Positions 2,189-19,833 are shown, numbered from the stretch's first letter. The stretch is 64,000 nucleotides of DNA from an uncultured Candidatus Saccharibacteria bacterium (GCA_964644035.1 CAZXUH010000001.1:393093-457092); one strand, 5' to 3'. Made by a program: numbers and translations. Notes: generated by a model not told the origin, from the letters alone.

Positions 2189-2194
2189 AACTAT

Positions 2195-5100
2195 CTACGG
2201 AGTAGGTTCAGTTACCGGTGGTTCTTCTACTGGAGGAGTTTCCTGCTCAGATCCAGAGTCTGCTGGTGTATCCTCGGAAGGTGTTTCATCTGCCGAAGTA
2301 TCTTCTGGCGGCGGTTCATCACTCGGAGTTTCATCCTCTACAGGTGGAGTGCTTGAAGCATTGCCATCATCTGGTGGTGGTTCATCGCCGCCTCCATTAC
2401 CTGGATTTGATGGTGGGGGTGTGCTTCCACCAGTCTGATTGAGCAATGCTCGCAACTGGTCTTTGTTGATACATACATCATCAAGACAGAGTTCGCTTGT
2501 CTGAACCTTTGTAAAGACACCGAGTGTAGCCTGGATTCTATCGAAGATGCTTACTGAAGAGAGCATTGCAGATGTTGAGGCAATCAACTGTTCAAGCGTC
2601 GTCACCTTCATATCGAGTTCTTGTATACCTTGGACGAGATATGGAGCGAAGCTTGAGTATGCGAGAGATTTATATCCATCAGGATTGGTATTCACAAGAT
2701 CTGGGAATACTGCTTCTACTTCCTGAGCAATGAAACCTGGGTGTCTTTCTGCAGCATCATTTTCAGCAAGCCAGTTGAATGATACCGATCGAAGATTTCT
2801 TAGTTTCTCAAGACTTGATGATGTTGAGAGTGTTGCTATATTTTTCTTCAAACGTTGATCGGATGTACATGAGAGCGCTGAGCTTGTAGGATCGACGTCG
2901 CAGGTACCGTTGGTATTTTGGAATCGAGCGATGACACCAGTTGTTGAGGCATTACCTACCGACAACATGTATGCCGGTGTCGATGTACCAATACCGACAA
3001 AACCATTTGGCGCAACTTCGAGAACCGTCTCGTTAGAAGATGATGAAATTCGGAATGTACTATTAGCTCCAGGTATACCAGTAATATGCAATCGTGCCAA
3101 AGGACTTGTTGTACCAATACCAATGTTACCATCAGCATTGACTCTCAAGAGTGTAGCTCCGCTCGACGAAGCAACATCAAAAATAATTTTGGTTGGTCGT
3201 GTAGAAGTGCCTCGTACAGAGAACGTTGCCCCTGGGGTTGTTGAACCAATCGAAACAGCACCGTTTGAGATTGTAAGTACTGCTCCAAGGTATCCACCAA
3301 GCGCAGCTGTCATTCGCTGGTTGTAGCGTAATTCTCCATTAATAACTTCAAGAGAAGAACAACTTCGACCACCATGCTGACAAGTAATTGAGGTAATAAT
3401 ACCATTTGAATCGTACGTTGGGTCTGATGCCATGTTTTGTACTACCCCCGATGCATCGGATATTATGTCCATAGTATAGCCTCCGTGGAATAGGAAGCTT
3501 GAGGTGTTATTAAAACCAAGTGCTCGATATGAGTTGCCACTAGCATCAGCGTTATTTCTTTCAATCGTTAGTGCTGCACCTTTGAACGGTGTGGATGTTC
3601 CTATTGCCACTTGACCTGTAGAAAGAACTCTCATGAGAGTACCTGATGGCTTGCCTGGCGCATGATTAGTCGATGAAGATATTTCAAATAATGGTGTTGC
3701 ACCAGCTGCACCCGTAATTTGGAGACGTGCGATAGGTGTAGTTGTTCCAATACCGACATTATTCATGCCGGTTATAGTAAGATGACCTGAGCTGTTTATT
3801 ACAAAATCAGTATCAACAACCCCAGGGTAGGTCATTCTTAATTTATTATTCGTACCATATATCTGAAGTGTTCCTGGTGCAGCAGTTGTGTTATTTCCCG
3901 TCGTATTGATAATAATTCCATTGTTGGTGTGTATACCGCCGTTTACATCGAGTTTTACAAGAGGACTTGTCGTACCAATACCCACATTACCGGCTTGATT
4001 AATTTCAAGAAGGCTTACGTTGGTAGATGAAGAAATTCTAAATGGATTAGTGCCGCCAATACCCCTGACCTGGAGAGATGTCGCGGGACTAGATGTACCT
4101 ACTCCAACAAGTCCTCCTGAAGGATTAAGGCTCAAAGTCTTAGCTGTACTTGCACCATCTGTCACGTCAATTTGAAAATGTTGTACTCCACCTGGAGTTT
4201 GAATGGCAAAATCAGCCTGCAAGTTATTGACCTGACCAGTACGTTCAATACGCATTGTGGCCAATCCTCCTGAATCATTGATAGTTAAGATTTTTGCTGG
4301 ATTTGAATTACCAATACCTACATAGCCATTCTGAAGTATCTCAAACATACTTGAGTTTGTTGAAGAAGAAACTCTGAATGGACTTGAGCCAGCAGATCCT
4401 GTGACCTGGAACTTGGTCAAAGGTGTTGTTGTTCCGACTCCAACCTTGCCAGTACCCAATATAGTAAATATTTCATTTCCTGCTGGTGCATCCATAAATG
4501 AATACCTGTTGTTTGCAGAAGTGTAGAGATTGAATCTAAACTGACCGCTTTGAGCACCAAGACCCATAGTTGAGGTTCCATCGTCATAAATTGCCAATTT
4601 TGTATTTGCAGTATCAGAGCCGAGAGATACTTTGGTTGTTGGATTTGCAACTCCGACTCCAAAGTTTCCGTTTTGCAAAAGCTGAAGCATTACTGTATTT
4701 GTTGATGAAGCGATTCTAAATGGATTGGTACCTGCACTTCCTGTAACCTGAAGTTTTGCCGCAGGAGTAGTTGTACCAATACCAACCAATGTATCTTCAT
4801 TGAGAGTCATCACGTTGTTATTTCTAACAAAGAATGAAGCCGTGTCTGTGCTTGCTGCCGAGACCTGCATTGAGAATCGTTCAGTACCACCTGAGTAGAT
4901 GGCGAAACTGTCAGTATTGTCGTTAGGATTTTCAATCGAGAGATTTGCAGTACCGTTTGTTATTCCGACACCCACGTTACCATTTGAATTTATTCTAAAT
5001 ATAGAATTATTTGTTGAAGATGCGACTTCAAAGAGTGGCGTTGTAGGCGCAGAACTAATTCCCTTTACGTTGAGCTGTGCAACAGGCGTAGTTGTACCGA

Positions 5101-8100
5101 TACCTACCCTACCTCCCAATGCTGCGAGAAGAACATTTGCATACTCTACACCAGCTTTTAGACCAGGATTGATTGTAACGTTCCCAGCTGTTCCAGAAGT
5201 TCCTGCATCACCAGCAGTAATCGTAACTGCTCCACCTGTACCAGTACTACCGGCTGAGCCAGCAGTGATACTTAGACTTCCACCTACCGTACTAGCAGCA
5301 CCTGAAGCAGAACCAGCCGCCAATACGAGATTTCCACCAAATGAGTTCGAACCAGTACCTGCACCCGATCGAATAGTAATGACACCACCACCTGTACCAC
5401 CATTACCACCTTCTCCACCAATAATAGTGACCCCTCCACCAGCATCTGTTCCCGATCCACCCAACACTCTGAGAGCTTCAGGTGCATCAGAAGAAGAAAC
5501 ATCAGAAGCATTTAGTCCCTCTATAGAAAGAGTTGCGAGCGGAGTACTTGAACCAATACCTACCATACCATTTTGAAGAATCGAGAAGTATTCATTGCCA
5601 CCCGCTGAAGCTGCGTCGAAGATACCAAAACGATCGGGACCTGTGGCTGAGATCGACCATGTAGTTGTACCTACATTATATGTTCCAGCCCAGACCGAAT
5701 TCCATCGTGCACCTGTTGCTCCGAGATTGTATGCTGACATATTGCCGCTGTATGGTGCACTTGGAAGAATATCTCTCATCATCGATGTGCCAGCGACAGT
5801 AAGAAGACTTGTAGGTGTTGTTGTACCAATACCGACATTGCCCGTCATATAGTAAATATCATTTCCTGTCTGTGTCCATTTTGATAGACCAGGAATACCA
5901 AGTGAAGATGTTGATGTCCATACTGGAGCTGCAGTTGAACCTTGTGACAAAAGCACCTGACCAAGTGTACCAGCATTGTTATTGAAGAGCGTTGCACCTG
6001 ACTGATTAATTTCAAACATCTTCGTATTTGTTGAAGATGAAATGAGGAATGGGGTTACAGTTCCCGATCCAGTAACCTGAAGTCTAGAAATAGGTGTTGT
6101 TGTACCAATACCAACATTTCCAGCTGTAGGGTTGATGATCAAATTGCCTCCTGCAGAAACGAGATATGAGTACAGACCACTTACCCCCAAACGTATACCT
6201 CCACCAATTACACCAGTTCCCCAGTTGTTTGAATTAGTATTGAAACTTATTCGAGGATCTGTTGTCCAGCTGAATGTAGCTTGAGCATCAACACCAGAAC
6301 CTACATCAACCGTAAGATTTCCTTCAGCCACAGTTCCTATTTGCAATTCTGACGTTGGGATAGGTGTAGCAATTCCAACATGTCCATTCGCATTTATTCT
6401 AAATATTGATGCGCCAGTGGATGATGCAATATCTACAAGAGGTACTGTTGGAGCAGTCGATGAACCTCTGATTGCGAGCTGTCCGCTTGGTGTAGATGAT
6501 CCAATACCAAGTCGTCCTGAGAGATAGTTGTGATTTTCACCAACCATATACAAACCATAATTGACCTGTCCGCCAGTAGGATTGCCATAGTATGAGACAA
6601 CTGATGTAGGGCCGAAAATAAATGATACTCCAACTGGAGTTGATTTAACACCAATAAGAGCTCCTGATATATCATAATCACCACCTATGTCTATGATTGT
6701 TTTTGAACCCGCAATCGTAACAGATGAACCACCTGTTGTGAATGCAAGATCAGGATTTGAACTACTTGGATTAATAATGCCAACATTGCCAGTAACAGTA
6801 AGTTTTGAACTTGGATTGACTGTATTGATTCCCACATTGCCGTTTTGCAATATTTCAAGCAAACTTACATTTGTAGACGAAGCGATTCTGAATGGATTCG
6901 TTCCACCCACTCCTGTGACTTGGAATGTGGTCAGAGGTGTTGAAGTACCTACAGCAACTTTTCCTGTGTTGTAATAGATATCGGATCCATTGGTGATCCA
7001 TTGTGATGACGATGCAATATTTGCAAAACCAAGTGAAGATGTTGCTACCCATAGCGGTGCAGCAGTTGAACCTTGTGACAAGAGAACCTGGCCAAGAGTT
7101 CCTGCTGAATCATTAAATAATGTTGCGCCAGACTGATTAATCTCAAACATCTTCGTATTTGTTGAAGATGAAACAAGGAATGGTGATGAGCCACCTGCAC
7201 CTGTGATTTGCAGACGAGCAAGTGGGGATGTAGTGCCAAAACCTGAGTTTCCGCCAGTCAACATAGTCAATTTGACCGTAGCTGTTGGACCAATCATCAA
7301 AGAGCTAGCAACATCGTTGACGATAAAGTTACCAAATACGAGTGAGTTGGCTGCGGAAACCGTGTTGAACGAACCAACTGCTGTACCATAACCAACATTG
7401 ATCGTGTTGGAATTACCGATTGCAGTTGAGTATCCATCGATTGGACCGCTTCTACCATTTACAATATTGAAACTTCCGAGTGCCGCGTTGTATATACCAC
7501 CTCCGACATTGTTACTACCTCCGATTGCGATGCTATTACCAAGCGTTGATGTGGCACTATTGTATTGACCGATAATGATTGATTCTGGGCCGCTCGCAAC
7601 TTGGTTGTGTGCTGTTCTTCTGCTCTGAATATCAATTGATCGTGCACCACGTGCCGCACCGCTGGTATCTCCCATAATAATCGCTCCACTTGATCCAGGA
7701 TGACTTACTGAGAGTGCGCCGAATACTGTTGTTGTTCCAACAACAGAAAATATTGATGCTGGAGATGATGTACCCACACCAACACTACCCGAACTATTCA
7801 AGACGGACAGGACAGGACTGTCAGCACTGCCGTTTGACGTACTGTCACCAATAAATACACTACTTGCGCCGTCGGGTTGGATATACAAATCTGCCCAAGC
7901 ATTAAGAGCGGCACTATGTCCTCCAAGCCATGCTTGAGAATTGTATTCGCCCATCAAAAATGCAACATTGTCTCCGCCGGCTACAATTCTTCCTCTCCAT
8001 GAGGCAGTCGATGCGCCTGTACCGCGTACATAGAGTTTTGCACCGCCATTTGCCGAAGGAATATCGTTGGAACCAATTCCAACATTACCGTTTTGCTGAA

Positions 8101-11100
8101 CTTCAAACAAAACAGTATTCGTTGACGAAGCGATTCTGAATGGATTCGTTCCACCCACTCCTGTGACCTGGAGTGTTGTGAGGGGTGTTGAAGTTCCTAC
8201 TCCTACTTTGCCTGCAGTGTATGAAAGATCATTGACTGTTTTTGTCCAGTAGTTGATCGAGGCTGGGAGTGTTGTTGAACCCAAGATATAGTTCGATACA
8301 CGTTGATCTGTGTAATAAAGATTTGAACCTTCTGCAACATTTGTTGTCAAAAAGCCAAGCGATGAAGTTGAAGTCCAGAGTGGAGCTGCAGTTGAACCTT
8401 GTGACAGAAGTACTTGGCCCAAGGTTCCATTTTGATTGTTGAATGCTACAGCGCCAGATTGATTGATTTCGAACATCTTCGTATGAGTCGATGAAGAAAC
8501 CAAGAATGGGTTGTTAGCACCTCCTCCTGTTATTTGCAATCGCGCAAGCGGAGTTGTTGTGCCGAGACCAACATTGCCACTGAAGTAAGCTCCCCCATCG
8601 ATAAAGCTTATATAAGAAGTGCCGATACTCGTTCCACTTGACTGTGTAGTCGAACTAAACACCAATTGTCCTGAGGCATTGGTATATGTGTAACCCTGCA
8701 ATGCATCACTAATCGATGTTCCATGGCGCCACTCGATCGCACCACCTCGTCGTGGAGGAGTAGGTCCTGCCGAAAGACCAGTGAGCACAATTTTTCCTCC
8801 ACCAGTCTGCCAATCACCAACATACAGATCTCTTCCCGCATTTACAAATACATCGCTATAAAATGTTGACGTACCTGATCCCAAAACATTGAGCACACCT
8901 TCAGCTGATATATTTCCTGCGAAGTAACCATTACCAGCAACTGAAAGTTTTTCAATTGGTGATGAACTTCCAATACCGAAGTTACCGTTTTGCAAAAGTT
9001 GGAGCATTACCGCATTTGTCGAAGATGACACTCTAAATGGATTCGTGCCCCCTACTCCTGTGACCTGGAACGTGGTCAAAGGCGTTGAAGTACCTACAGC
9101 AACTTTTCCAGTGTTGTAGTAGATATCAGATCCGTTGGTAATCCACTGTGATGAAGATGCAACGCTCGCAAATCCAAGCGAAGAGGTTGCTACCCATTGA
9201 GGCGCTGCAGTCGAACCAAATGATCGGAGAATAAATCCTGATGTTCCGGCATCGTTGTTGAAGAGTACAGCACCTGATTGATTGATTTCAAACATCTTCG
9301 TATTTGTTGAAGAAGAGATGAGGAAAGGACTTGCTGTGCCCGCACCTGTTACCTGAAGTCGAGCGATAGGTGTCGTGGTACTCAATCCAATATTTCCAGT
9401 ACTCAAATCACCAAAAAGCGCATTGCCTATGTTTAAGAAATTGGAATCAGAAGCTGAGCGAGCAAGTACTGAACCGATAAGTATGTTATTCGCACCTGTC
9501 GTTGAGGTTGTACCAACCCGATAACCGAGCATAATGTTATTTGATCCAGATGTAAGTGCTCCGCCTGACTGATAACCCACAAGCGTATTGGCAGAATTTC
9601 CTGTACCACTGCCCTGACCTGACAAATAACCAATTGCTACGTTCGCAGAACCTCCGTTGTTTTGGCTTCCAGCGTGGTTACCAATGTAGACGTTTACCAA
9701 TCCACCAGCATTTGAAGATCCTGCACCAGTACCAAGAAATACGTTGTTGCTACCTGTACTGCCACTACCAGCCGAATTACCTAAGAAGAGGTTGTTGCCT
9801 CCCGAAACGTTACCTGTACCAGCATTCGATCCGAGGAAGATATTGTCCGAGCCACCAACATTGGAGAATCCAGACTGATTTCCAACAAAAATGTTGTCAT
9901 TACCGCTTGTATTTGAAAATCCAGACTGATTTCCAACAAAGAAGTTATATGCTCCGCTTACTCCAGCAGCAACAGGTGTTGCACCTCCCAAAAACAAGTT
10001 GCCGGTCGTTGTTGCCAATCCAAAGAGCTGTCCGCCTGAGTAATAACTCGTGCTATCAGTGATACCAGCTACCGTAAGTGCTGCCCATGGAGTGGTTGTA
10101 CCAACACCCACCTTTCCTGTCGCACGATAGACATTACCCGATCCAAGAGTCCAATAGTTAATCGAAGCAGGAAGTGTTGTTGAACCAAGTACATAATCAG
10201 ACACCCTTTGGTTTGTGTAATAAAGATTTGTTCCTTCTGCTACGTTTGTTGTGAGAAAACCAAGTGTTGAAGTAGAAGTCCAGACTGGTGCAGCTGTTGA
10301 ACCTTGCGACAAGAGAACCTGTCCGAGTGTTCCGTTTTGATTGTTGAATGCTACTGCACCCGACTGATTGATTTCAAACATCTTCACATTTGTCGAAGAT
10401 GAGATGAGGAATGGGGATGAGGCTCCAGCACCAGAAACATGTAATCGAGCTATTGGTGACGAAGTACCAATCCCAACTAGACCATTTCCAGTTATTGTCA
10501 TAAGTTCAGTAGCGCCTGAGCTAAAGAACGAAAATGCTTTGCCAAACGCTGTACCCGATGGCTGTGATGTACCTGAGAATAAATCAACACCGTAATTACC
10601 ATTGAGTTGGAAAACATTTACCTGTGCAAAATCTGATGGTCTGCGGTACTTTATAGGATTGTTGTAATCAAGAACGATTGAGCCATTTGCAATATCGAGT
10701 TTCTGTTGGGGGGTTGTTGTACCGATACCAACATTGCCTTGGACAATCAATCCATTCGTAGGAGGTGTCTGGTTGTAATATCCTGTACCAATTGCCGCAT
10801 ATCCATTAACACCAAGTAATGTTCCAACATATATTCCGCTATTGGTATCACCAGCAACACCAAGCTGCAATTTTGCACGAGATGCACCATCTCCAGTCAC
10901 CGCATCGAGCGTTGGCAATGAACCTGCACCACCGATCACCATACGTGCGAAGTTGAAGCTTGCATTTCCAGCACCATCGGGATCAGCGAACCAGATTTGT
11001 TTGTTGTTTACCGCATTGTATCCGAGTGAGAACAAGAAACCGCTACCGCTACTTACTCCGCTGAGTGAGCTGCCGGTAAATGCAATACCACGAGTAGAAG

Positions 11101-14100
11101 TTGCTCCAGTTGCTGATTGAGCAACAGTAAAGTTCGCAGCGGGAGTTGATGTGCCGACTCCGATATTCCCATTGTTCAAAATAGTGAAGAGTGACGTTCC
11201 GGTTGAAGATGAAACGTTGAATGGATTGACTCCACCTGTTCCTTGAAGATTGAATGTATACGATGACGATGATGCATTGATACCAACAACCGATCCATTC
11301 TCTCGGAGAATAGAATCTGTAAATGCGCTACCTGTCCATCGTGGCATGAAGCCCGATGTGAGAGAGGCGGTGATTGCTGATGAAGTAAAGCCAAGTGAAG
11401 ATGTTGATGTCCAAACAGGAGCTGCTGTTGAACCTTGTGACAAGAGGACCTGACCCAATGTTCCAGCCTGATTATTAAAGAGGGCTGCACCTGATCTATT
11501 GATTTCAAACATCTTCGCATTTGTTGAAGATGAAATAAGGAAAGGACTTGCTGTACCTCCACCTGTTAGCTGAAGTTTTGCAATAGGTGTAGTTGTACCA
11601 ATACCGATATTTCCTGAAGAATTAATTGTCATATGAACAACACCAATACCCGCTCCATCTCCAGTCATAAACTGTAGATCATTAAATGTGCTATCACCAG
11701 CAACAGTACCAATTACAAGTGCGTTGTTTTGTGCTCCTGTAACGACGTCTCCAGCAGAAGTTGTAAGTGCTGAGCCAACAAAACCAAAGTACCCTGTGGT
11801 GAGAGAACCATCCTGGAGCAAGGAGATTCCAGGGTTGTCATTCTCATCGTTATTATCAGTATCAGAATCAATTACAAATAAACCGTCGCCTGCTATACCA
11901 CCACTAACATGAAGACGACCGCTTGGAGACATAGTGCCGATACCGACATTTCCGTTTTGCAAAATCTCAAACAAACTTGCATTTGTCGATGAAGAAACTC
12001 TGAAAGGATTGGTACCACCTGTTCCCCTTACTTGAAAAGTATTGAGCGGTGTTGATGTTCCTACACCAACTTTTCCTGCAGTGTATGAAAGATCATTAAC
12101 TGTTTTTGTCCAGTAGTTGATTGAAGCAGGAAGTGTTGTTGAGCCCAAGATATAGTTCGATACACGTTGGTCTGTGTAATACAAGTTTGAACCTTCGGCG
12201 ACGTTTGTTGTGAAGAATCCGAGAGAAGATGTTGAAGTCCATAGAGGTGCTGCAGTAGAACCTTGTGAAAGTAGTACTTGGCCAAGTGTTCCGTTTTGAT
12301 TGTTGAATGCTACTGCACCTGACTGATTGATTTCGAACATCTTGGTATTTGTCGAAGATGAGACGAGGAATGGATTTGATCCTCCAACTCCTGTTACCTG
12401 CAATCGCGCAAGCGGAGTAGTTGTACCTACACCCAGATTTCCAGTTGATGAGATAGTGATCTTTGCAGAATCACTTGAACCAATCTGAATACTATTTGCA
12501 ATTGAGTTGTTGATGTTTTGTCCAATAATTGTCGCATCTGCTGCCGACACAATGTTGTTGTAACCAAAAATGAGTCCGTTACTTCCGCTTGAAGTATTTG
12601 CATTACCATAAAGTACTGAACCTCCGGCTTCTGCTAGGTTATCCCTACCGATAAGTACAGCATCAGACGAAGAAGCAATGTTACCTCTTCCGATCAATGT
12701 ACTATCGGCAGAAAAAGCATTTGCGCTGTTTGAGATACCAACAATAAATACATCTGCTGCCTCGTTAAGGTTCGATGATCCAAAAATAGATCCACCTGAA
12801 CCATTATTACTATTGCCCAGACCAAATGTAACAGCATTCGCTTTAGTCGAACTATTCGAGAGTCCAACTACAAACTGCTCAGTTTCAACACCTCCCCCCG
12901 TCAAAGCATTGTCACGACCAAAGGATGCACATTGTTCGCAATCCACTGAGTTTGCAAAACCAATTGCAATCGTTTGAACTCTGGACGCCTGGTTGTCGGC
13001 ACCGAAAGCTATTGCATTAACTCCGCTGGCTACCCATGTAGGATCGCCATGCGAAGATTGAATATCGATAGAGCTCGTTCCGCGCGCATTACCGGAAGTG
13101 TCTCCAATCACCACCGCATTTGTAATTGGATACTTCATTGAGAGAGCTCCGTAAATGCTTGTTGTGCCAACCACATACAACGGTGTTGCTGGCGTCGATG
13201 TACCAATACCAACATTACCTGTATTGAAGTAAATGTTAGCGCCGTTATTGATCCATTGTGACGAAGTAGCTGTACCTCCAATACCAAGTGATGAAGTTGC
13301 GACCCAGATAGGCGCAGCTGTTGAACCTTGAGACAAAAGCACTTGACCAAGCGTTCCAGCTTGGTTGTTGAAGAGCGCTGCGCCCGATTGATTAATCTCG
13401 AACATTTTCGCATTTGTTGAAGATGCAATGAGGAACGGACTTGCTCCACCAGCACCCGTGATCTGAAGTCGAGCAATAGGTGTCGATGTACCAATACCCA
13501 ATCGATCGTTTGTATCATCCCAAATAAAATTGGCTGCATCGCTTGAAAGATAACCGTTGGTCGATGCAAATGGAATGATGCCAGAACTAAACGCCGTAGC
13601 GCTGCTGTTTTGAAGCAAAATATTTCTATCGGTGTTGGCTGGTGAGAAGTAAAGCTGCGTTCCGTCGTATTCGACTGCTCCAGCTTCAGCCGATGTGAGG
13701 TTGGTACCAGGGCTGAACTTGAGAGGTGCCGTGCTTGCAGATGCCGTACCAGTTGCAAGATGAAGCAAAGCGCTAGGTGTTGTAACACTGCCTCCCAAAA
13801 ACAACTTACCGTTGAGTTTGCTGCTCAATCGGTCGGTCAAATTCAATGCAATAGTGCCATTGCCATCATAGAGATTCATTGCACCACCGTCGACATGGAT
13901 AAACGATGAACCATTTTGAGAGCGGAATGAGTATGAGTACACACCAATGTTTGGAACAATGCGAGCCTGACCCCCGGCACCAGTGAAGAGGGCGATACCG
14001 TCATCAGCAACGCTGAAACGCTCTACATCAGCACTGTTGAATGTTGCAAAATGCTTATCAGAACCACTACCGGTACTGCGAACAGTCAGACGATGCGTCG

Positions 14101-14704
14101 GTGTGGATGTACCAACGCCAACATTGCCGCTTGAAGTGATCGAAAATACTGAGCTTGTGCTTGCACCAAAGAATTCTGCAACCTTGCCAGCACCAGTTTG
14201 GATGATGCTCATAAACGTCGAAGCACTTGAGGTGCTGTTGCTCTGATCGTTTCTGAAAAATGCACTTCCCGAAACACCGCCAAGTGTTCCCGCATCTTTT
14301 GCAATCATTGCTGCAGGCACTGCACCGAGAATTTTTCTTGGTGTCATTTCACTATCCGCTTCGATCGTCACACCAAGATACAACACCTGATTGAAATCAA
14401 TACTCGTCAACGAAGTTGTTGAACCGAGCATGATGCTGAAGAGTCCGTCGGTTACTTGTACGGTGTCCGACTCTGTCCAGATTGCAACGCCACCTGTTGG
14501 AACTGTGTAGAGTTTGAAAACGATATCGTAATCACCGTTGGTGACTGCAATGTTTGCCGGAGTGGTGAGACGACCTTGATAATTGATTTGAGGATTGAAT
14601 GCAGCTTGTGCAACTGGCATTTCAAAAAATCCGACGAAAGGAATTGCGAGTGATGCAACGAGAACGAGGACTGACACTGGGATGTACAATAGTTTTTTTA
14701 TCAT
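2195..14704 (-). CDS. Giant (4169 aa) secreted, fibre-like surface protein. It has an N-terminal signal/TM, a tail-fibre-like N-terminal domain, more than 8 repeated ~50-aa modules (GIGTTTP..ARLQVTG..SPFLISSSTN.KMFEINQSGA), Gly/Asn-rich beta-helix-like repeats, a C-terminal intramolecular chaperone auto-processing (peptidase S74) domain, and a Pro/Glu/Thr/Asp-rich tail.
   Basis: Single uninterrupted ORF. N-terminus MIKKLLYIPVSVLVLVASLAIPFVGFF..AQA is signal-like. The C-terminal segment CTSDQRLKKNIATL..SFNWLAENDAAERHPGFIAQEVEAVFPDLV..DGYKSLAYSSFAPYLVQGIQEL matches the conserved S74 chaperone-of-endosialidase motif set (approx DNA 2575-2900). The final ~76 aa are PE/T-rich low complexity. Confidence 0.8.
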   Translation of the reverse strand: MIKKLLYIPVSVLVLVASLAIPFVGFFEMPVAQAAFNPQINYQGRLTTPANIAVTNGDYDIVFKLYTVPTGGVAIWTESDTVQVTDGLFSIMLGSTTSLTSIDFNQVLYLGVTIEADSEMTPRKILGAVPAAMIAKDAGTLGGVSGSAFFRNDQSNSTSSASTFMSIIQTGAGKVAEFFGASTSSVFSITSSGNVGVGTSTPTHRLTVRSTGSGSDKHFATFNSADVERFSVADDGIALFTGAGGQARIVPNIGVYSYSFRSQNGSSFIHVDGGAMNLYDGNGTIALNLTDRLSSKLNGKLFLGGSVTTPSALLHLATGTASASTAPLKFSPGTNLTSAEAGAVEYDGTQLYFSPANTDRNILLQNSSATAFSSGIIPFASTNGYLSSDAANFIWDDTNDRLGIGTSTPIARLQITGAGGASPFLIASSTNAKMFEINQSGAALFNNQAGTLGQVLLSQGSTAAPIWVATSSLGIGGTATSSQWINNGANIYFNTGNVGIGTSTPATPLYVVGTTSIYGALSMKYPITNAVVIGDTSGNARGTSSIDIQSSHGDPTWVASGVNAIAFGADNQASRVQTIAIGFANSVDCEQCASFGRDNALTGGGVETEQFVVGLSNSSTKANAVTFGLGNSNNGSGGSIFGSSNLNEAADVFIVGISNSANAFSADSTLIGRGNIASSSDAVLIGRDNLAEAGGSVLYGNANTSSGSNGLIFGYNNIVSAADATIIGQNINNSIANSIQIGSSDSAKITISSTGNLGVGTTTPLARLQVTGVGGSNPFLVSSSTNTKMFEINQSGAVAFNNQNGTLGQVLLSQGSTAAPLWTSTSSLGFFTTNVAEGSNLYYTDQRVSNYILGSTTLPASINYWTKTVNDLSYTAGKVGVGTSTPLNTFQVRGTGGTNPFRVSSSTNASLFEILQNGNVGIGTMSPSGRLHVSGGIAGDGLFVIDSDTDNNDENDNPGISLLQDGSLTTGYFGFVGSALTTSAGDVVTGAQNNALVIGTVAGDSTFNDLQFMTGDGAGIGVVHMTINSSGNIGIGTTTPIAKLQLTGGGTASPFLISSSTNAKMFEINRSGAALFNNQAGTLGQVLLSQGSTAAPVWTSTSSLGFTSSAITASLTSGFMPRWTGSAFTDSILRENGSVVGINASSSSYTFNLQGTGGVNPFNVSSSTGTSLFTILNNGNIGVGTSTPAANFTVAQSATGATSTRGIAFTGSSLSGVSSGSGFLFSLGYNAVNNKQIWFADPDGAGNASFNFARMVIGGAGSLPTLDAVTGDGASRAKLQLGVAGDTNSGIYVGTLLGVNGYAAIGTGYYNQTPPTNGLIVQGNVGIGTTTPQQKLDIANGSIVLDYNNPIKYRRPSDFAQVNVFQLNGNYGVDLFSGTSQPSGTAFGKAFSFFSSGATELMTITGNGLVGIGTSSPIARLHVSGAGASSPFLISSSTNVKMFEINQSGAVAFNNQNGTLGQVLLSQGSTAAPVWTSTSTLGFLTTNVAEGTNLYYTNQRVSDYVLGSTTLPASINYWTLGSGNVYRATGKVGVGTTTPWAALTVAGITDSTSYYSGGQLFGLATTTGNLFLGGATPVAAGVSGAYNFFVGNQSGFSNTSGNDNIFVGNQSGFSNVGGSDNIFLGSNAGTGNVSGGNNLFLGNSAGSGSTGSNNVFLGTGAGSSNAGGLVNVYIGNHAGSQNNGGSANVAIGYLSGQGSGTGNSANTLVGYQSGGALTSGSNNIMLGYRVGTTSTTGANNILIGSVLARSASDSNFLNIGNALFGDLSTGNIGLSTTTPIARLQVTGAGTASPFLISSSTNTKMFEINQSGAVLFNNDAGTSGFILRSFGSTAAPQWVATSSLGFASVASSSQWITNGSDIYYNTGKVAVGTSTPLTTFQVTGVGGTNPFRVSSSTNAVMLQLLQNGNFGIGSSSPIEKLSVAGNGYFAGNISAEGVLNVLGSGTSTFYSDVFVNAGRDLYVGDWQTGGGKIVLTGLSAGPTPPRRGGAIEWRHGTSISDALQGYTYTNASGQLVFSSTTQSSGTSIGTSYISFIDGGAYFSGNVGLGTTTPLARLQITGGGANNPFLVSSSTHTKMFEINQSGAVAFNNQNGTLGQVLLSQGSTAAPLWTSTSSLGFLTTNVAEGSNLYYTDQRVSNYILGSTTLPASINYWTKTVNDLSYTAGKVGVGTSTPLTTLQVTGVGGTNPFRIASSTNTVLFEVQQNGNVGIGSNDIPSANGGAKLYVRGTGASTASWRGRIVAGGDNVAFLMGEYNSQAWLGGHSAALNAWADLYIQPDGASSVFIGDSTSNGSADSPVLSVLNSSGSVGVGTSSPASIFSVVGTTTVFGALSVSHPGSSGAIIMGDTSGAARGARSIDIQSRRTAHNQVASGPESIIIGQYNSATSTLGNSIAIGGSNNVGGGIYNAALGSFNIVNGRSGPIDGYSTAIGNSNTINVGYGTAVGSFNTVSAANSLVFGNFIVNDVASSLMIGPTATVKLTMLTGGNSGFGTTSPLARLQITGAGGSSPFLVSSSTNTKMFEINQSGATLFNDSAGTLGQVLLSQGSTAAPLWVATSSLGFANIASSSQWITNGSDIYYNTGKVAVGTSTPLTTFQVTGVGGTNPFRIASSTNVSLLEILQNGNVGINTVNPSSKLTVTGNVGIINPSSSNPDLAFTTGGSSVTIAGSKTIIDIGGDYDISGALIGVKSTPVGVSFIFGPTSVVSYYGNPTGGQVNYGLYMVGENHNYLSGRLGIGSSTPSGQLAIRGSSTAPTVPLVDIASSTGASIFRINANGHVGIATPIPTSELQIGTVAEGNLTVDVGSGVDAQATFSWTTDPRISFNTNSNNWGTGVIGGGIRLGVSGLYSYLVSAGGNLIINPTAGNVGIGTTTPISRLQVTGSGTVTPFLISSSTNTKMFEINQSGATLFNNNAGTLGQVLLSQGSTAAPVWTSTSSLGIPGLSKWTQTGNDIYYMTGNVGIGTTTPTSLLTVAGTSMMRDILPSAPYSGNMSAYNLGATGARWNSVWAGTYNVGTTTWSISATGPDRFGIFDAASAGGNEYFSILQNGMVGIGSSTPLATLSIEGLNASDVSSSDAPEALRVLGGSGTDAGGGVTIIGGEGGNGGTGGGVITIRSGAGTGSNSFGGNLVLAAGSASGAASTVGGSLSITAGSAGSTGTGGAVTITAGDAGTSGTAGNVTINPGLKAGVEYANVLLAALGGRVGIGTTTPVAQLNVKGISSAPTTPLFEVASSTNNSIFRINSNGNVGVGITNGTANLSIENPNDNTDSFAIYSGGTERFSMQVSAASTDTASFFVRNNNVMTLNEDTLVGIGTTTPAAKLQVTGSAGTNPFRIASSTNTVMLQLLQNGNFGVGVANPTTKVSLGSDTANTKLAIYDDGTSTMGLGAQSGQFRFNLYTSANNRYSFMDAPAGNEIFTILGTGKVGVGTTTPLTKFQVTGSAGSSPFRVSSSTNSSMFEILQNGYVGIGNSNPAKILTINDSGGLATMRIERTGQVNNLQADFAIQTPGGVQHFQIDVTDGASTAKTLSLNPSGGLVGVGTSSPATSLQVRGIGGTNPFRISSSTNVSLLEINQAGNVGIGTTSPLVKLDVNGGIHTNNGIIINTTGNNTTAAPGTLQIYGTNNKLRMTYPGVVDTDFVINSSGHLTITGMNNVGIGTTTPIARLQITGAAGATPLFEISSSTNHAPGKPSGTLMRVLSTGQVAIGTSTPFKGAALTIERNNADASGNSYRALGFNNTSSFLFHGGYTMDIISDASGVVQNMASDPTYDSNGIITSITCQHGGRSCSSLEVINGELRYNQRMTAALGGYLGAVLTISNGAVSIGSTTPGATFSVRGTSTRPTKIIFDVASSSGATLLRVNADGNIGIGTTSPLARLHITGIPGANSTFRISSSSNETVLEVAPNGFVGIGTSTPAYMLSVGNASTTGVIARFQNTNGTCDVDPTSSALSCTSDQRLKKNIATLSTSSSLEKLRNLRSVSFNWLAENDAAERHPGFIAQEVEAVFPDLVNTNPDGYKSLAYSSFAPYLVQGIQELDMKVTTLEQLIASTSAMLSSVSIFDRIQATLGVFTKVQTSELCLDDVCINKDQLRALLNQTGGSTPPPSNPGNGGGDEPPPDDGNASSTPPVEDETPSDEPPPEDTSADETPSEDTPADSGSEQETPPVEEPPVTEPTP
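4300..13450 (-). repeat. Intragenic near-identical DNA repeats within the giant gene, with 0.8-1.3 kb spacing
   Basis: The motif ...ctgattgatttcaaacatcttcgtatttgttgaagatga.. recurs at ~6011, 7141, 8461, 9281, 10361, 11491, 12321 and 13381, with weaker copies at 4341, 4680, 6850, 8100, 8990, 11180 and 11960. A second motif, ccttgtgacaa(g/a)ag.acctg.cc.a..gttcc, precedes each copy. Confidence 0.8.
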
Positions 14705-15075
14705 TTTCCTATTTGTGCATCCTTGTCCAATAACGTGACTGTTTCTGTAAGACTCTTTGCGGGAGTTTTCAGTGCAACATTTGATGTTGTTGTCTCACCT
14801 GAAAAATAGAAAAAGGCGGATGCAAATCCGCCTACACAAAAGAGAAATACTGCAACCAAAAGTCCTCGACCATTTGCAAACAATGCTCTCCCGGCTGGCA
14901 CGTAGTGCTTGGTCATGAAATAAGATTTTACTTCCCGTTCACTGACAAACCAGTTGCGGCCTACCTTCTTACCTTTGACCTTTCCAGAACGAATAAGAGC
15001 CCCGATGTAATCGGAGTGATACCCTGAAATTTGGGCGGCTTGCTTAAGCGTGATGTAATCCTGAAATATGGCCAT
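14701..15075 (-). CDS. Membrane-tethered helix-turn-helix protein with an HTH_17/excisionase-type DNA-binding domain and one TM helix; stop codon overlaps the giant gene start (ATGA)
   Basis: ITLKQAAQISGYHSDYIGALIRSGKVKGKKVGRNWFVSEREVKSY fits the HTH_17 pattern (..IRsG.l....gr.wri..). A hydrophobic stretch LLVAVFLFCVGGFASAFFYF follows, then a 30-aa tail. The 4-nt overlap 14701-14704 is read directly from the coordinates. Confidence 0.6.
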   Translation of the reverse strand: MAIFQDYITLKQAAQISGYHSDYIGALIRSGKVKGKKVGRNWFVSEREVKSYFMTKHYVPAGRALFANGRGLLVAVFLFCVGGFASAFFYFSGETTTSNVALKTPAKSLTETVTLLDKDAQIGK

Positions 15076-15090
15076 GTTGAGGGCTCGTAC

Positions 15091-15117
15091 AGAAATCTCG
15101 AGTTACTCGAGATTTCT
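15091..15117. promoter_or_regulatory. Perfect 27-bp palindrome AGAAATCTCGAG-TTA-CTCGAGATTTCT followed by a T-run, ~16 nt upstream of the HTH gene start. Candidate operator, leader hairpin or terminator.
   Basis: Read directly: the 12-bp arms are exact reverse complements. Confidence 0.55.
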
Positions 15118-15204
15118 TTTTTACTAATAAAAGCCCTGTAGATATAATTATATCTCAGAAAATGTTCAAAATATGGCTATAAATCAAGGGTTGTTGATAA
15201 CTTT

Positions 15205-16596
15205 TTAATAAAGTTTTTGAGTTTTTTCCCTTATGAAAATTCTGACGATTACGTAGATTCCGATGAACAAAATGATCAAGTAAATGAGCAAAAATAAACC
15301 AATGAAAAATATAATTTGTCTATTTTTTAGACTTCCCTGCCCGACAAGATTTGAGCTCGAAATAAACATACCTGGAACGTGCGTTTCGCTACCTCGACTC
15401 AAGAAAACAATGTCAAAAAATGAGTCTCCGGAGGTAAGTGAAGCAGGCACTACAACTTCAAGATATCCATCGCTATGTTTTCTGAAAAGAAATGTATTGA
15501 TGTTACCCTTTTCGATGATTCGAATGTATGACTGTTCTGTATTTTTTGGTATGACCGATTTTGGTACACGCACGATCACTGCTTGTTGATTGTTGATAGA
15601 AAAATTTTGTCGTGAACCAAAAATCCTCGCACCATTTTGAAAAAATAAAATCGATTCAGTTGCTGTGGTCGAAGTTGAAATAGTATTTCCGCCAAAAAGT
15701 GGAAGTGATCCAAAATTGTTTCCCGATGAATCGTAGAAAATAAAATCGGTGACCGCGCCGGAAGAATAATTTCCAAATCGATCTCGTGCAAACGCTGTAT
15801 AAAAATAATGCATGTTTGAAAATGCATTTGAATCGAGTGCTTGCTGTCCCCGACCTTCGTACACAAAATATCCTTCTTGAGGATCGCGCGGATAATATCT
15901 CGTACCGCGTCTGATACGAACAAAATCAAAATCTTCATCGCGAGGATTCTTCCACGTCAGCAAAATATTTCCTCCAAATGAAAGTTCAGCACGAAAATCA
16001 GTAATGTTCGAAGGTGGCGTACGATCAAACAATGATTTTGTTCTAAACGCATAGGTCACCTGCGCCGACTGACCAAAACCGTCCGATGCTCGAACTGTTA
16101 CGTAGTACAGCGTATCCGGCAAAAGGTTGGTCAGCAAAATATTGTGAATATTCCTCAGATCAGTTTCAGTAACATTGCCCGCCGAAGTATCTGGATCGGT
16201 ACCCCAGGAAACCGTGGACAAAGTCTTGGCTGGGGTCGTCCAACTCACTATGGCCGTCGTCGTAGAAGCCTCTATTTTGAAGTTTTCGAAGACAATTGGC
16301 CATTTGTACGTACCTCCAGGACCTGGTTCGGCGGGAGGTTGTGGTGCCACAGAAGGTGTGGTTGTGGGAGTCGGAGGGGTGGTAGTAGCAGTACAATCTG
16401 AAGGACAACTACTGACCGTTTCCCCTAAAAACAGTTCGCAAATCAGATTGTTATTACAGCCCTCAACCAAGAGCTCGATTACCGTCGAATCATCCGCTGT
16501 CGCGGCCTGTACCGAAGAATGTCCTATAGAAACATAAAGGACACAGACCGAAATTACCAGAAATAACCAGGCAAATGTCGTCTTTTTTGAAAGCAT
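15205..16596 (-). CDS. Secreted, membrane-anchored protein with an N-terminal signal, a Cys-rich segment, a Pro/Thr linker, two fibronectin-III-like domains and a C-terminal TM anchor
   Basis: Signal MLSKKTTFAWLFLVISVCVLYVSIG..VQA. Linker TTTPPTPTTTPSVAPQPPAEPGPG. FN3-like stretches (TAIVSWTTPAKTLSTVSWGTDP...LYYVTVRASD; ILLTWKNP..DFVRIRRGT..YFY). C-terminal IIFFIGLFLLIYLIILFIGIYVIV plus RIFIREK. Confidence 0.6.
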   Translation of the reverse strand: MLSKKTTFAWLFLVISVCVLYVSIGHSSVQAATADDSTVIELLVEGCNNNLICELFLGETVSSCPSDCTATTTPPTPTTTPSVAPQPPAEPGPGGTYKWPIVFENFKIEASTTTAIVSWTTPAKTLSTVSWGTDPDTSAGNVTETDLRNIHNILLTNLLPDTLYYVTVRASDGFGQSAQVTYAFRTKSLFDRTPPSNITDFRAELSFGGNILLTWKNPRDEDFDFVRIRRGTRYYPRDPQEGYFVYEGRGQQALDSNAFSNMHYFYTAFARDRFGNYSSGAVTDFIFYDSSGNNFGSLPLFGGNTISTSTTATESILFFQNGARIFGSRQNFSINNQQAVIVRVPKSVIPKNTEQSYIRIIEKGNINTFLFRKHSDGYLEVVVPASLTSGDSFFDIVFLSRGSETHVPGMFISSSNLVGQGSLKNRQIIFFIGLFLLIYLIILFIGIYVIVRIFIREKTQKLY

Positions 16597-16603
16597 GGTC
16601 GTA

Positions 16604-17359
16604 TTATAACGCTACTGCTGTTGCCGTGATAACTGCCGAATAAGCACCACTTTCTTGCATCTTTGACGGTCCTATTTCAGCTCTTACCTTGACGGTCGTG
16701 GTGGCGCCCGAAGGATGGTTGGAACCGGTCGATTGCGATATATTCTTGGTTGTTAGAGTAAAACCGTCCCAGCAAGCGTCTGCGGTGTCAGAGGAGCCTG
16801 TATTACACACAGAACTGTTATCTTTGAAGCGTGGAAGAATATCAGCTCCTTCTGGGCTAAATCCAAAGGCCGATGTAGTCGAAACTATAGCAAAAGTATA
16901 ATCAGGGTCAGCACTTGCCGGTGTGTAATCGTCAAAAGAGATTCCTCCGGAGGTTTGAAGTGCAGGATCAGTCGAGGCTTGGACCGAAAGCACGTAGCCA
17001 GCGCTATTGTCGGTCAATACATTCCAAGCGATAGAACCATTACTCGTACCTCCAATCAAGCCGTTGATATCAGCAAGCGCCACATCTGGTGGTGAGCTAA
17101 TCGAGATATACGACGTATACATCTGCTGATACCCAGCTTTCATGACATAGTTGGTGCTACTGGAAAGTCCTGTTGCTATCTCACCTACCGTATCTTCGAG
17201 ATTGAAACTGGTACTCGTCGAACGCCCTCCCCCGACATCAATAGCATCAAAATTGATTTTGTAATTGGTACTTTGCATTGCAGCAAAAGCCGAAACGAAA
17301 GACAGTGAGAGAATACCGATGGCAATGTACGCGCCCGCGCGCATGATTTTATTTATCAT
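16604..17359 (-). CDS. WxL-like secreted cell-surface protein (Csc-cluster-like, small subunit type)
   Basis: Signal peptide; Ser/Thr/Gly-rich beta-rich composition. The C-terminus SGAYSAVITATAVAL resembles the WxL C-terminal motif G.Y.GTLTWTL but lacks Trp. Start overlaps the upstream gene by 4 nt. Confidence 0.45.
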   Translation of the reverse strand: MINKIMRAGAYIAIGILSLSFVSAFAAMQSTNYKINFDAIDVGGGRSTSTSFNLEDTVGEIATGLSSSTNYVMKAGYQQMYTSYISISSPPDVALADINGLIGGTSNGSIAWNVLTDNSAGYVLSVQASTDPALQTSGGISFDDYTPASADPDYTFAIVSTTSAFGFSPEGADILPRFKDNSSVCNTGSSDTADACWDGFTLTTKNISQSTGSNHPSGATTTVKVRAEIGPSKMQESGAYSAVITATAVAL

Positions 17360-18360
17360 TGCTTGCGACGAAATTCAAATCTTGAAAGGAAGAAGTAAGA
17401 AATAAGTATAAGCAGGACAAGACCACCGCCAACAGCAAGAAGAATTTTCCACGGAAGAATCCAGAATGCCAGAACTTTGGTATCAATAATGTCACCGTAA
17501 CCTCGATTGAGTTCGAGAGTTGCCTTGTAACGTCCGATCCTGAAGCTATCATCTGCCCAATTTACATCTCGGTAACGCAATGAATCTGGAAGTGAGAAAT
17601 AAGCGTCAATCGGTAAAACTCCGATTTCACTACCAAACAGATTGCTAATCCTGATCACACCGTAGGGCGCCAAGTGCACACTACCTGTGTTGTTGAAAAG
17701 TATTTGGAATTTGTCAGGAGATGTTTCGTATATCCAATGTTTATCTGAAATACGAAAATCTTCCACAAAACCGCTTTCATTTACCGGACCGTTGACTCTG
17801 ACAAAAAACAAGACACCGACACGAGAAATAATCTGAGCACCACTAACCGAAGTACTACTGTCGTTCTGAGGCCCATTGGCGACAATTACCGACGAATAAT
17901 AGCCTCCCGGCAAGGCATTTGCTGGGATTTGTATGGTGATAGGAATAGTGATTCTATCCCCAAAATTAAGGGTAAAATCGGAAACTGCAGGCCGTAAAGA
18001 GTCCTTAAATGAATTAGGGCTTCTGTCATCGCCAAGAAGAACAACGGGATTTTGTTCTTCACGAGAACCGACGAAATCTTCGGTCGTAACCTTGAAATCC
18101 GTCTTCCTGTTTATACGACTGGTAACTGAAATATATTTGACGATTGTGTCGCCCGGATCAGCAAAAATTTCCATTTTGCCTGGTTCGAGAACGAAGTCAT
18201 TTTTGTCATCGACACTCATCGATGTGATCTGAGGTCTTTCGGAAGTCTGAGCAAATGTTGCCGCAGGAGCAAGTATGCACGACATCAATACGATTAAGAA
18301 TGCAATATTCTTAGTACGGCTTAGTCCGCAAGATCGTAGTATTGATTTCTTTTTCGGCAT
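17356..18360 (-). CDS. DUF916/DUF3324-like cell-surface protein with a C-terminal TM anchor (CscA-like)
   Basis: Signal peptide; N-terminal domain ..ITSMSVDDKNDFVLEPG..; C-terminal ..YKATLELNRGYG..VLAFWILPWKILLAVGGGLVLLILISYFF plus RRKQ. This is the architecture of DUF916-DUF3324 proteins in WxL loci. Confidence 0.5.
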   Translation of the reverse strand: MPKKKSILRSCGLSRTKNIAFLIVLMSCILAPAATFAQTSERPQITSMSVDDKNDFVLEPGKMEIFADPGDTIVKYISVTSRINRKTDFKVTTEDFVGSREEQNPVVLLGDDRSPNSFKDSLRPAVSDFTLNFGDRITIPITIQIPANALPGGYYSSVIVANGPQNDSSTSVSGAQIISRVGVLFFVRVNGPVNESGFVEDFRISDKHWIYETSPDKFQILFNNTGSVHLAPYGVIRISNLFGSEIGVLPIDAYFSLPDSLRYRDVNWADDSFRIGRYKATLELNRGYGDIIDTKVLAFWILPWKILLAVGGGLVLLILISYFFLSRFEFRRKQ

Positions 18361-18365
18361 TTTTA

Positions 18366-19028
18366 TTAGATCGTTGTCGCTGTAGCCACGATGGTAGCCT
18401 TGTATGTTCCGGATGGAATATAGGAGTTATTCTGTTCTACCGCATAGCAGACCGTACTGTCAACACCCGAAGTTGTTGTTGTCGACGAGCGTGTAGCGAT
18501 TGTTACGTCCGATGTTGTGAAGCCTTTGTATTTGAGTGTAGTTGAAGTTGCGTGAGCGTTGGTAGTAGTGCTGCAGAGAGATCCTGTTCCCCATGTACCA
18601 GTTGGTACATCGGTACCGAAGGCTGAGTAGCCAAATTCGTATGTACCAAATGGAGTACTCCAAAATGCCGGTGCGCCAGTCTGGTCGTCACCAATAGTGT
18701 TGGTTGAGGATTGCATAGCAGGAGTAGAAGTAGCCTTGACTGCGAGGGTGTAGCCGAGGTTATTGTTTGTCTTAACATTCCAAGTCGTTGTCGCAACAGC
18801 ACTGTTTTGCGCGACACCGACTGCTGTACTCATGGTTGCATCAGCAGGGCTCGTGATCGAAATACCAGCGGTCACGTTGAGCGTGATAATGACCGTATCT
18901 GATGCCGAGGCCTGTGCTCCAGCGTACATCGGTTCGAGAGATGCGTACGTAACCAGTGCGCCGACGCTCAAGACCAAGTATGATGCAGCGAGCTTAAATA
19001 TTTTTTTCTTAATGTTCATGATGTACAA
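18366..19028 (-). CDS. WxL-like secreted cell-surface protein
   Basis: Signal MNIKKKIFKLAASYLVLSVGALVTYAS. TTTWNVKTNNNLGYTLAVKAT resembles the first W.L region. The C-terminal SGTYKATIVATATTI resembles the WxL terminal motif. It is the first gene of the 4-gene minus-strand operon. Confidence 0.45.
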   Translation of the reverse strand: MYIMNIKKKIFKLAASYLVLSVGALVTYASLEPMYAGAQASASDTVIITLNVTAGISITSPADATMSTAVGVAQNSAVATTTWNVKTNNNLGYTLAVKATSTPAMQSSTNTIGDDQTGAPAFWSTPFGTYEFGYSAFGTDVPTGTWGTGSLCSTTTNAHATSTTLKYKGFTTSDVTIATRSSTTTTSGVDSTVCYAVEQNNSYIPSGTYKATIVATATTI

Positions 19029-19260
19029 TTTACCCTCTTATAATTTCCAGACCCTAATAGTACAGGAATCATTCTAAATGTCACAACTGCAATATATGAA
19101 TAAGATGTGTATAAACCGTTAATAACCCACAGTATCATTGTATATAGACGTTTTATGGCCTATATTCTGACAAGAAACTTTTATTTTTAGACCGAATTTA
19201 GATTTATTTTATTTAAATTTTAATTAAATAAATCTTTTTATTTTGTCGAGAAAACTTTTT

Positions 19261-19300
19261 TGGAGCCGCTACACAAATCGAACTGGCTACTAGATTTGCA
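19261..19300 (-). other. Degenerate partial copy of the tRNA-Thr 3' half (T-loop AGTTCGA plus identical acceptor 3' end AGCGGCTCCA); possible att-site remnant or tRNA pseudogene
   Basis: tggagccgct (19261-19270) is identical to 19315-19324. The alignment tgcaaatcta.gtagcc.agttcgatttgtgtagcggctcca against tgtaaacagtaggtcctcagttcgaatctgagaagcggctcca was read directly. Confidence 0.5.
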
Positions 19301-19314
19301 TGGAACTAAAATTT

Positions 19315-19390: not shown

Positions 19391-19404
19391 ATGAACCTAT
19401 ACTA

Positions 19405-19806: not shown

Positions 19807-19833
19807 ACGCGCTCGTGTCTCACGAGCAAAGTG

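Follow-up and report, generated by a model that had tools for sequence, protein, structure and literature searches.

Diverged module copies within a giant gene for a predicted S74-type fibre in a candidate Paceibacteria-like bacterium

A 64,000-nucleotide stretch of DNA from an uncultured Candidatus Saccharibacteria bacterium (GCA_964644035.1 CAZXUH010000001.1:393093-457092), called here the window, contains a giant gene within which a protein module recurs about every kilobase. The gene is an uninterrupted open reading frame (ORF) of 4169 aa with an ATG start, on the minus strand at 2195..14704 (ORF scan and translation). It raises the question of whether the repeats are young, nearly identical DNA that still recombines and varies the product, or old duplicates kept alike by the protein they encode. 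A sequence-only reading had taken the former view, with recent duplication or gene conversion, variation of a fibre and a hidden assembly hazard as its consequences. Our analysis favours the latter. The repeats encode, with good probability, structural modules of a giant secreted fibre, duplicated within the gene in the distant past and since diverged, in a Paceibacteria-like bacterium of the Candidate Phyla Radiation (CPR). The motifs seen by eye reflect conservation at the protein level and not DNA identity, and recency, conversion, rapid variation and hidden collapse are therefore not implied.

Module copies and the divergence of their DNA

Module A is present in the giant ORF in eight in-frame copies with the motif SSSTN.KMFEINQSGA..FNNQ.GTLGQVLLSQGSTAAP. 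The pattern SS[ST][NH].KMFEIN.SGA is found eight times, at aa 428, 783, 1059, 1436, 1798, 2071, 2513 and 2890. All copies lie on the minus strand, at 13277..13504 (copy 1, aa 401-476), 12215..12442 (copy 2, aa 755-830), 11387..11614 (copy 3, aa 1031-1106), 10256..10483 (copy 4, aa 1408-1483), 9170..9397 (copy 5, aa 1770-1845, the most divergent, GTSGFILRSFGSTAAPQW), 8351..8578 (copy 6, aa 2043-2118), 7025..7252 (copy 7, aa 2485-2560) and 5894..6121 (copy 8, aa 2862-2937). A DNA repeat finder places them in one family, with copies 1-4 at 13277-13507, 12212-12442, 11384-11614 and 10253-10483, and copies 5-8 at 9167-9397, 8348-8578, 7022-7252 and 5891-6121. The start-to-start distances are 1065, 828, 1131, 1086, 819, 1326 and 1131 nt, each a multiple of 3. 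The eight kilobase-spaced copies described by the sequence-only reading are thus borne out, 819-1326 nt apart in one minus-strand ORF, and they are in-frame protein modules of a single giant fibre-like gene.

The second module type (B), with the motif FQVTGVGGTNPFR.SSSTN..L.EILQNGNVGIG, is likewise present, together with degenerate copies, as had been noted. One B module spans aa 877-925 (GKVGVGTSTPLNTFQVRGTGGTNPFRVSSSTNASLFEILQNGNVGIG; 11930..12076, minus strand, detected by hidden Markov model, HMM). Other well-conserved B copies on the same strand lie at 11147-11293, 8963-9109, 8066-8212, 6815-6964, 4646-4792, 4304-4450 and 3968-4114, with HMM scores of 62-88 bits. Both types share a core unit of ~48 aa (GNVGIGTxxPxxxLxVxG....PF...SSST....F.I...G), and an HMM of this core gives 37 matches in the giant protein, ~21 of them full length. 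The first 12-14 residues of the core unit are a capping-loop motif. Its strict form, VG[IVL][GN][TSA]xxPxxxL, is present 18 times in the giant protein, where shuffling of the residues gives 0.004; relaxed (VGIGTxxPxxxL-like), the motif is present 33 times, compared with 0.6 by shuffling. Module A consists of the core plus an extension of ~30 aa (FNNQ.GTLGQVLLSQGSTAAP.W..TSSLG), found in eight modules; searches of PDB and Pfam give no match to this extension.

The DNA of the copies is quite diverged. Pairwise nucleotide identity among the eight copies is 64-80% over the 237-nt module (mean 70.5%) and 68-85% over the 144-nt core (mean 76%). The best 60-nt window, which encodes PFLxSSSTNxKMFEINQSGA, has a mean of 83% and a range of 73-92%, and the claim of a nearly identical segment longer than 60 nt does not hold. 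Because some of its residues (K, M, F, E, I, N, Q) have few codons, the DNA of this 60-nt window stays alike without any recent event. A blastn self-comparison, run as the dot plot of the gene, gives 49 off-diagonal direct matches with a median identity of 74%; matches of at least 60 nt peak at 83%, none of that length reaches 85%, and there are no inverted matches. Tandem Repeats Finder returns nothing for the gene, and no tandem arrays are present. The gene contains 23 exact repeats of at least 20 nt. The longest, of 44 nt, lies in B modules (8124-8167 / 6876-6919, minus strand), followed by 35 nt shared by copies 2 and 4 (12285-12319 / 10326-10360), the longest in the main module, and 31 nt shared by copies 7 and 8 (7143-7173 / 6012-6042).

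Divergence at silent sites is large. Over 79 gapless codons, the Nei-Gojobori method puts the synonymous divergence (dS) of the copies at a median of 1.25 and never below 0.62; the nonsynonymous divergence (dN) is ~0.2, with dN/dS of 0.06-0.27. The step from high DNA identity to recent duplication or gene conversion accordingly loses its footing, because identity is low and dS is high. With dS near saturation and dN/dS low, the copies bear the mark of long-standing duplication, with purifying selection acting on the protein. Where two copies agree in a residue, they also agree in its codon in 50.5% of cases, compared with 36.9% expected from codon usage. The ancestry of the copies is still visible, with silent sites near saturation, and the DNA still resembles itself because purifying selection on the protein is strong and part of the core is encoded by low-degeneracy codons. 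The most similar large block joins copy 6, with its linker and B module, to its closest paralogue, the corresponding block of copy 2 (507-nt match, 80.7%). Over 172 codons these two blocks are 88% identical in protein and 80% in DNA, with dS of 1.03 and dN/dS of 0.08. Blocks of an A module, a linker and a B module, ~0.5 kb in all, are duplicated as units.

The relatives of the module show how its number changes. Each copy is 70-91% identical in amino acid sequence to its seven sisters and at most 70% identical to any foreign module, indicating an expansion of A modules in this lineage. A profile of the eight A modules, searched against 1.84 billion entries and counted in representative proteins, detects 13,242 representatives when E ≤ 1e-3 is required and 87 under E ≤ 1e-30. 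Among these 13,242 relatives, the best 150 measure 775-7,920 aa and show as many as 56 matched stretches; a single-sequence search detects S74, the C-terminal domain discussed below, in 56 of the 150. Full A modules are absent from 110 of the best 150 and number 1-3 in 35 and 5-6 in four; only the giant protein has eight. Two relatives have module copies that are 100% identical, so recent duplication does happen elsewhere in the family. That module number evolves by duplication is therefore upheld for the family as a whole: sister copies are nearest to each other, relatives have from 0 to 8 full copies, and two carry identical ones.

The giant protein is a singleton at 90% identity clustering. 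An exact look-up of the 4169-aa product yields no gene record, and the identical sequence stands in the representative protein library as P0018. A query with the module block retrieves only short or partial proteins of less than ~320 aa, and a metagenome scan with the unique insert at aa 2215-2484 retrieves only distant relatives, with at most 67% identity over 100 aa. Scans with module A patterns find nothing in GTDB genomes, and a pattern scan of IMG/VR for module A is equally empty. Among 80 related CPR loci anchored on DnaE, no module-bearing gene lies beside dnaE and synteny is not shared.

Architecture of the predicted fibre

The N-terminus of the giant protein, judged by eye from the translation, is a putative signal peptide of aa 1-34 (MIKKLLYIPVSVLVLVASLAIPFVGFFEMPVAQA|A; 14603..14704, minus strand), whose n-region is basic and whose core is hydrophobic, with an AxA site (AQA|A). 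It is followed by a β-sandwich domain at aa 35-128 (INYQGRL...W.E...V.V..G.FS..LG; 14321..14602, minus strand), delineated by an AlphaFold2 (AF2) model and by homologues. In the AF2 model of residues 34-128, the confidence score pLDDT (predicted local distance difference test) exceeds 90 over model residues 1-95, all of them β-strands. A query with this domain finds 51 homologues, mostly partial Patescibacteria/Parcubacteria proteins and all shorter than ~320 aa. Foldseek of the model against PDB gives no significant fold match, only generic Ig-like sandwiches with E > 0.02.

At the other end, a Peptidase_S74 intramolecular chaperone / autoprotease domain is located at aa 3948-4004 (2693..2863, minus strand; Pfam E 2.1e-17). 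The match to PF13884 scores 63.6 bits against a cut-off of 22 and covers profile positions 1-57 of 58. The catalytic dyad Ser3948-Lys3953 lies at the domain start in SDQRLK (SDxxxK motif), which aligns with SDERLK (8jov) and SDRRIK (6f45) of solved phage tail-fibre chaperones. PHROG tail-fibre families match the giant protein at this end and along the shaft. Pfam recognises nothing in the shaft, and NCBIfam gives zero matches to the giant protein. Beyond S74, the C-terminal tail (aa 4046-4169; 2198..2569, minus strand, from the translation) ends in an acidic, low-complexity stretch. These ~124 aa, Pro/Glu/Thr/Asp-rich at the end (…DEPPPDDGNASSTPPVEDETPSDEPPPEDTS…), are unusually long for a segment past a C-terminal chaperone domain.

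The inserts between modules, at ~12450-13100, ~9400-10000, ~7300-7700 and ~5150-5450 (minus strand), have short internal periodicities of their own. Those at aa 560-740 and 2340-2470 show an IG..N.A.G..S.A.G-type periodicity, that at aa 1560-1760 shows N.F.G..AG..N..G..N, and that at aa 3085-3190 is Gly-rich (GG.G..G.VTI). These patterns resemble other β-helix or β-roll types, and Pfam gives no match for them.

The closest known systems are the MAT (mosaic adhesive trimeric) fibres of Bdellovibrio bacteriovorus, an S74 subgroup that includes Bd3182 and Bd2133. In these fibres, capping loops stand at the edges of an intertwined trimeric β-helix, and the stretch that forms them recurs in further S74 proteins, MyRF among them (Caulton et al. 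2024, PMC10769870). S74-type phage tail fibres have the motif as well. The published motif is V-G-[I]-G/N-pi-x-x-P-x-x-x-L, with LVGIGTATPAAPLH and RVGINTDRPDEALV as example loops (PMC10769870). MAT fibres and the giant protein share a cellular setting, VGIGTxxPxxxL capping loops along the shaft, a C-terminal S74 tip with SDxxxK and, in outline, a signal peptide with a β-rich N-terminal domain; like Bdellovibrio, the organism here presumably lives on other cells. The only solved structures matched by the shaft sequence are the Bdellovibrio MAT chains 8ond (Bd2133) and 8ojn, found by HMMER through GNVGIGTxxPxxxLxV. The MAT N-domain, conserved, β-rich and ~130 aa long, has no structural homologue in PDB (PMC10769870), and its likeness to the N-domain here, compared by description only, lies in outline in the signal peptide and the confident β-sandwich. 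MAT-like proteins are recorded across phyla with lengths of 417-1915 aa, typically ~1000 aa, and no CPR member (PMC10769870 Supplementary Table S3). With 4169 aa, the giant protein is ~4 times longer and lies outside this range. It also differs from MAT fibres in its CPR host, in eight extended-module copies not described there and in several insert domains.

Phage tail fibres and tailspikes (K1F endosialidase, T5 pb1, S16 long tail fibre 6f45, 8jov; PF13884) share S74 and the Ser-Lys dyad, and PHROG families of such fibres match the shaft; the giant protein, unlike these, is encoded on a cellular chromosome among housekeeping genes, carries a signal peptide, greatly exceeds them in length and lacks neighbouring virion genes. 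Giant surface proteins as such are nothing new in CPR bacteria. Those of CPR or host-dependent bacteria (Vampirococcus lugosii, PMC8080830; preprint 10.1101/2023.11.21.568195) are also multi-kiloresidue, secreted repeat proteins of organisms with a very small genome and a presumed role in host attachment. They are built from WD40, PKD, integrin, dockerin and other domains, while the S74/capping-loop architecture does not appear in PMC8080830 or 10.1101/2023.11.21.568195. The giant protein probably belongs with the S74-type trimeric fibres and would clearly exemplify, for CPR bacteria, a surface fibre that resembles tail fibres and combines S74 with capping loops. To our knowledge, S74 capping-loop fibres are experimentally characterised only in Bdellovibrio and phages.

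We predict the giant protein to be a secreted trimeric fibre of S74 (tail-fibre-like) type. The signal peptide would export the chain. By analogy with the biology of S74 fibres (PMC10769870), the C-terminal Peptidase_S74 would start trimerisation from the C-terminus and then cleave itself at Ser3948, an event that would release a C-terminal piece of ~220 aa including the acidic, proline-rich tail. The modules would stack into a long trimeric shaft interrupted by the insert domains, and the N-terminal β-sandwich would remain at the cell surface. A rough extrapolation from the Bd3182 model (~550 Å for ~780 residues, ~0.7 Å per residue) suggests a fibre length of ~0.28 µm. Knowledge of CPR bacteria and MAT fibres points to attachment to a host or partner cell as the most likely role. 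Module number would set fibre length and would shift by rare duplication over evolutionary time, not by fast switching. In CPR bacteria such fibres go under no other label than 'hypothetical protein', and they plausibly help to determine host range and attachment to the host.

A bolder extension, which we regard as doubtful if possible, is a CPR-specific, MAT-like trimeric fibre of ~0.3 µm, a length comparable to that of the cell, that is made and anchored with a conserved upstream WxL/Csc-like cluster and serves as a dedicated host-attachment organelle. Its eight A modules would be periodic nodes, for instance hinges or docking sites for accessory proteins, and not mere spacers. If true, such an organelle would tie together phage tail-fibre chemistry, prey recognition by Bdellovibrio and CPR episymbiosis.

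Competing explanations and the assembly

Several results weigh against ancient duplications in a trimeric fibre as the full account. The trimeric β-helix of the shaft is a deduction, and the AF2 monomer of an A-linker-B block is unusable (pLDDT 54); a poor single-chain model is what one expects of an obligate trimer. Sequence likeness to the solved MAT fibres stops at the brief capping-loop motif (whole-sequence E of 5e-6 at best), and the A-specific extension is matched in neither PDB nor Pfam. Expression, autocleavage, surface location and host binding are predictions from the sequence. As for the DNA, the longest exact repeat of 44 nt compares with 22.9 ± 3.6 (maximum 41) in synonymous-codon shuffles, and 105 repeated 20-mers compare with ~6. 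The pair at aa 783/1436 has a significant shared run of variable sites (GENECONV-style permutation, global p 0.002), the only pair with such a run. This run could be a short conversion tract or, equally, the trace of an A2/A4/A6 subfamily ancestry. Together, the excess of exact matches and the run leave room for occasional short-tract conversion.

The same exact repeats, above the level of the synonymous shuffles, and the same run count in favour of the view that the copies are recently duplicated or gene-converted near-identical repeats that drive rapid in-frame length or antigenic variation. The copies are also in frame and in register, the eight cluster together relative to other proteins, and identical copies exist in two other family members. 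We consider this view very unlikely, since the modules are 64-80% identical with no match of at least 60 nt at 85%, the median dS is 1.25 and the smallest 0.62, and tandem arrays are lacking. Five sample assemblies, moreover, have an identical C-terminal stretch of 1281 aa, and a further assembly matches the N-terminal 2.4 kb at 100%. Homologous recombination drops steeply at ~20% divergence and with such short exact matches. Near-identical DNA over a recombinogenic length, a feature of recombination-prone repeat loci, is absent here. Streptococcal Alp/Rib-type and mycoplasma Vlp-type surface repeats are tandem, of nearly identical DNA, and vary by recombination. The giant gene shares with them repeated in-frame modules of a surface protein and differs in that its copies are dispersed at 0.8-1.3 kb, 64-80% identical and saturated at silent sites. 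Frequent length or antigenic variation of the fibre appears unlikely, because the copies offer only exact matches of 20-44 nt inside DNA that is 70-80% identical.

Also very unlikely is the reading that the giant gene encodes no cellular surface fibre and is left over from a prophage or mobile element, such as a tail fibre integrated beside tRNA-Thr. The PHROG tail-fibre matches and the S74 domain fit such an origin, as do an HTH_17/excisionase-like gene immediately upstream, the tRNA-Thr at 19315-19390 and the 80 related genomes that lack the giant gene next to dnaE. Set against these, no integrase, capsid, terminase or other tail gene is seen among the surrounding ORFs scanned, and the gene encodes a secretion signal peptide, which virion fibres do not have. 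A different Parcubacteria metagenome-assembled genome (MAG) retains the upstream cluster of four genes for secreted or membrane proteins together with another fibre gene, module A is absent from the IMG/VR pattern scan, and cellular S74 fibres are established in Bdellovibrio (PMC10769870). We rejected a prophage origin on these grounds.

The least probable of the explanations weighed is that the repeat count or order is wrong, with the gene collapsed, expanded or chimeric through its repeats. Contigs assembled at k=31 do end at repeats of the gene. A Logan contig of SRR14271361 (k=31) is 100% identical to the window over 12290-19876 and stops 30 nt into the 35-nt repeat. A contig start at 6041, giving a product of the last 1281 aa, was predicted beforehand from the 31-nt repeat; the product was found on five contigs, of which one was retrieved and matches the window at 100% over 1195-6041. 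Five independent sample assemblies share this C-terminal fragment. Related fibre genes elsewhere are cut by contig ends at 220-275 aa. The independent contigs cover 12290-19876 and 1195-6041, with the interior 6042-12289 outside them. An artefact is countered by the fact that every exact repeat is at most 44 nt, below read length, and that the copies differ by 20-36%, which gives unique read placement. The 12.5-kb ORF is unbroken with all spacings in frame, the contigs break where the repeats of the window predict, the flanks are 100% identical, and the protein comes from a 568-kb NCBI contig.

Of the assembly hazard raised by the sequence-only reading, one part stands: contigs at k=31 do break at the exact repeats. 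The other part, collapse or expansion that passes unnoticed, is not expected, with repeats shorter than a read and flanks that agree fully; it is unlikely because no exact repeat is longer than 44 nt and 20-36% of positions distinguish the copies. The hazard is fragmentation of the fibre gene, not collapse. Exact repeats of 31-44 nt suffice to fragment such genes at k=31, which is probably why most relatives in databases are truncated. Repeat-driven fragmentation of assemblies is described for giant CPR-type surface genes (PMC8080830; 10.1101/2023.11.21.568195). Two independent Hainich groundwater assemblies of a related organism (L098 and L099, 8001-8660) both run 660 nt into a homologous fibre gene and stop at an identical position, showing that fibre genes of this kind systematically end short-read contigs.

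Host and neighbouring genes

The window is cellular DNA, with genes for dnaE, tsf, rpsB, a prfA-type release factor, ribonucleotide reductase, groEL, glmS, zwf and DUF5667. The closest DnaE proteins belong to Paceibacterota, Parcubacteria and Nomurabacteria MAGs and share 61-67% identity, and judged by its genes the host is a Paceibacteria-like CPR bacterium. The giant gene makes up ~2% of a contig of ~0.57 Mb. It is convergent with dnaE, and the stop codons are ~6 nt apart (2188-2195), leaving no space for a separate terminator. Plus-strand ORFs within the giant gene (e.g. 4899-5576 and 9556-10062) are taken as shadows of the long minus-strand ORF.

Immediately upstream lies a gene for a 124-aa HTH_17 (excisionase-like) protein with a hydrophobic segment after the HTH (14701..15075, minus strand). 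Its stop codon overlaps the ATG of the giant gene (ATGA), suggesting translational coupling of the two. A related HTH opens a 300-aa protein (L098:5950-6852, 45% over 49 aa) that is encoded two genes, or ~1.1 kb, upstream of another fibre gene.

Further upstream, at 15205..19028 (minus strand), lie four genes whose products, of 220, 334, 251 and 463 aa, are secreted or membrane proteins. At L100:3835-8004 the four are found in the same order, upstream of another fibre gene, with 63, 54, 51 and 25% identity; this contig belongs to a different Parcubacteria MAG (GCA_046049705.1), and a second S74 protein is nearby. The cluster looks like a conserved fibre-associated operon and is a testable handle on fibre assembly or anchoring. 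The 334-aa protein (17356-18360, minus strand) has a weak match to the Enterococcus faecium WxL-interacting protein EfmWxLIP1 (9i25/9i1y; E 0.007 over ~180 aa). It ends in a transmembrane helix, like CscA/DUF916 proteins. The 220- and 251-aa proteins (18366-19028 and 16604-17359, minus strand) are paralogues with ~30% identity. Their motifs (W.V.T.N..GY.L.V and a C-terminal Y.A.I.ATA), for which Pfam gives no match, are reminiscent of WxL proteins. The upstream cluster may represent a Csc/WxL-like surface complex in a CPR bacterium.

Elsewhere in the window, Rfam detects a third tRNA at 41301-41374 (minus strand, 44 bits), beside tRNA-Ser (41155-41244), that ARAGORN does not call. It may be unusual or intron-affected, a kind described for Patescibacteria.

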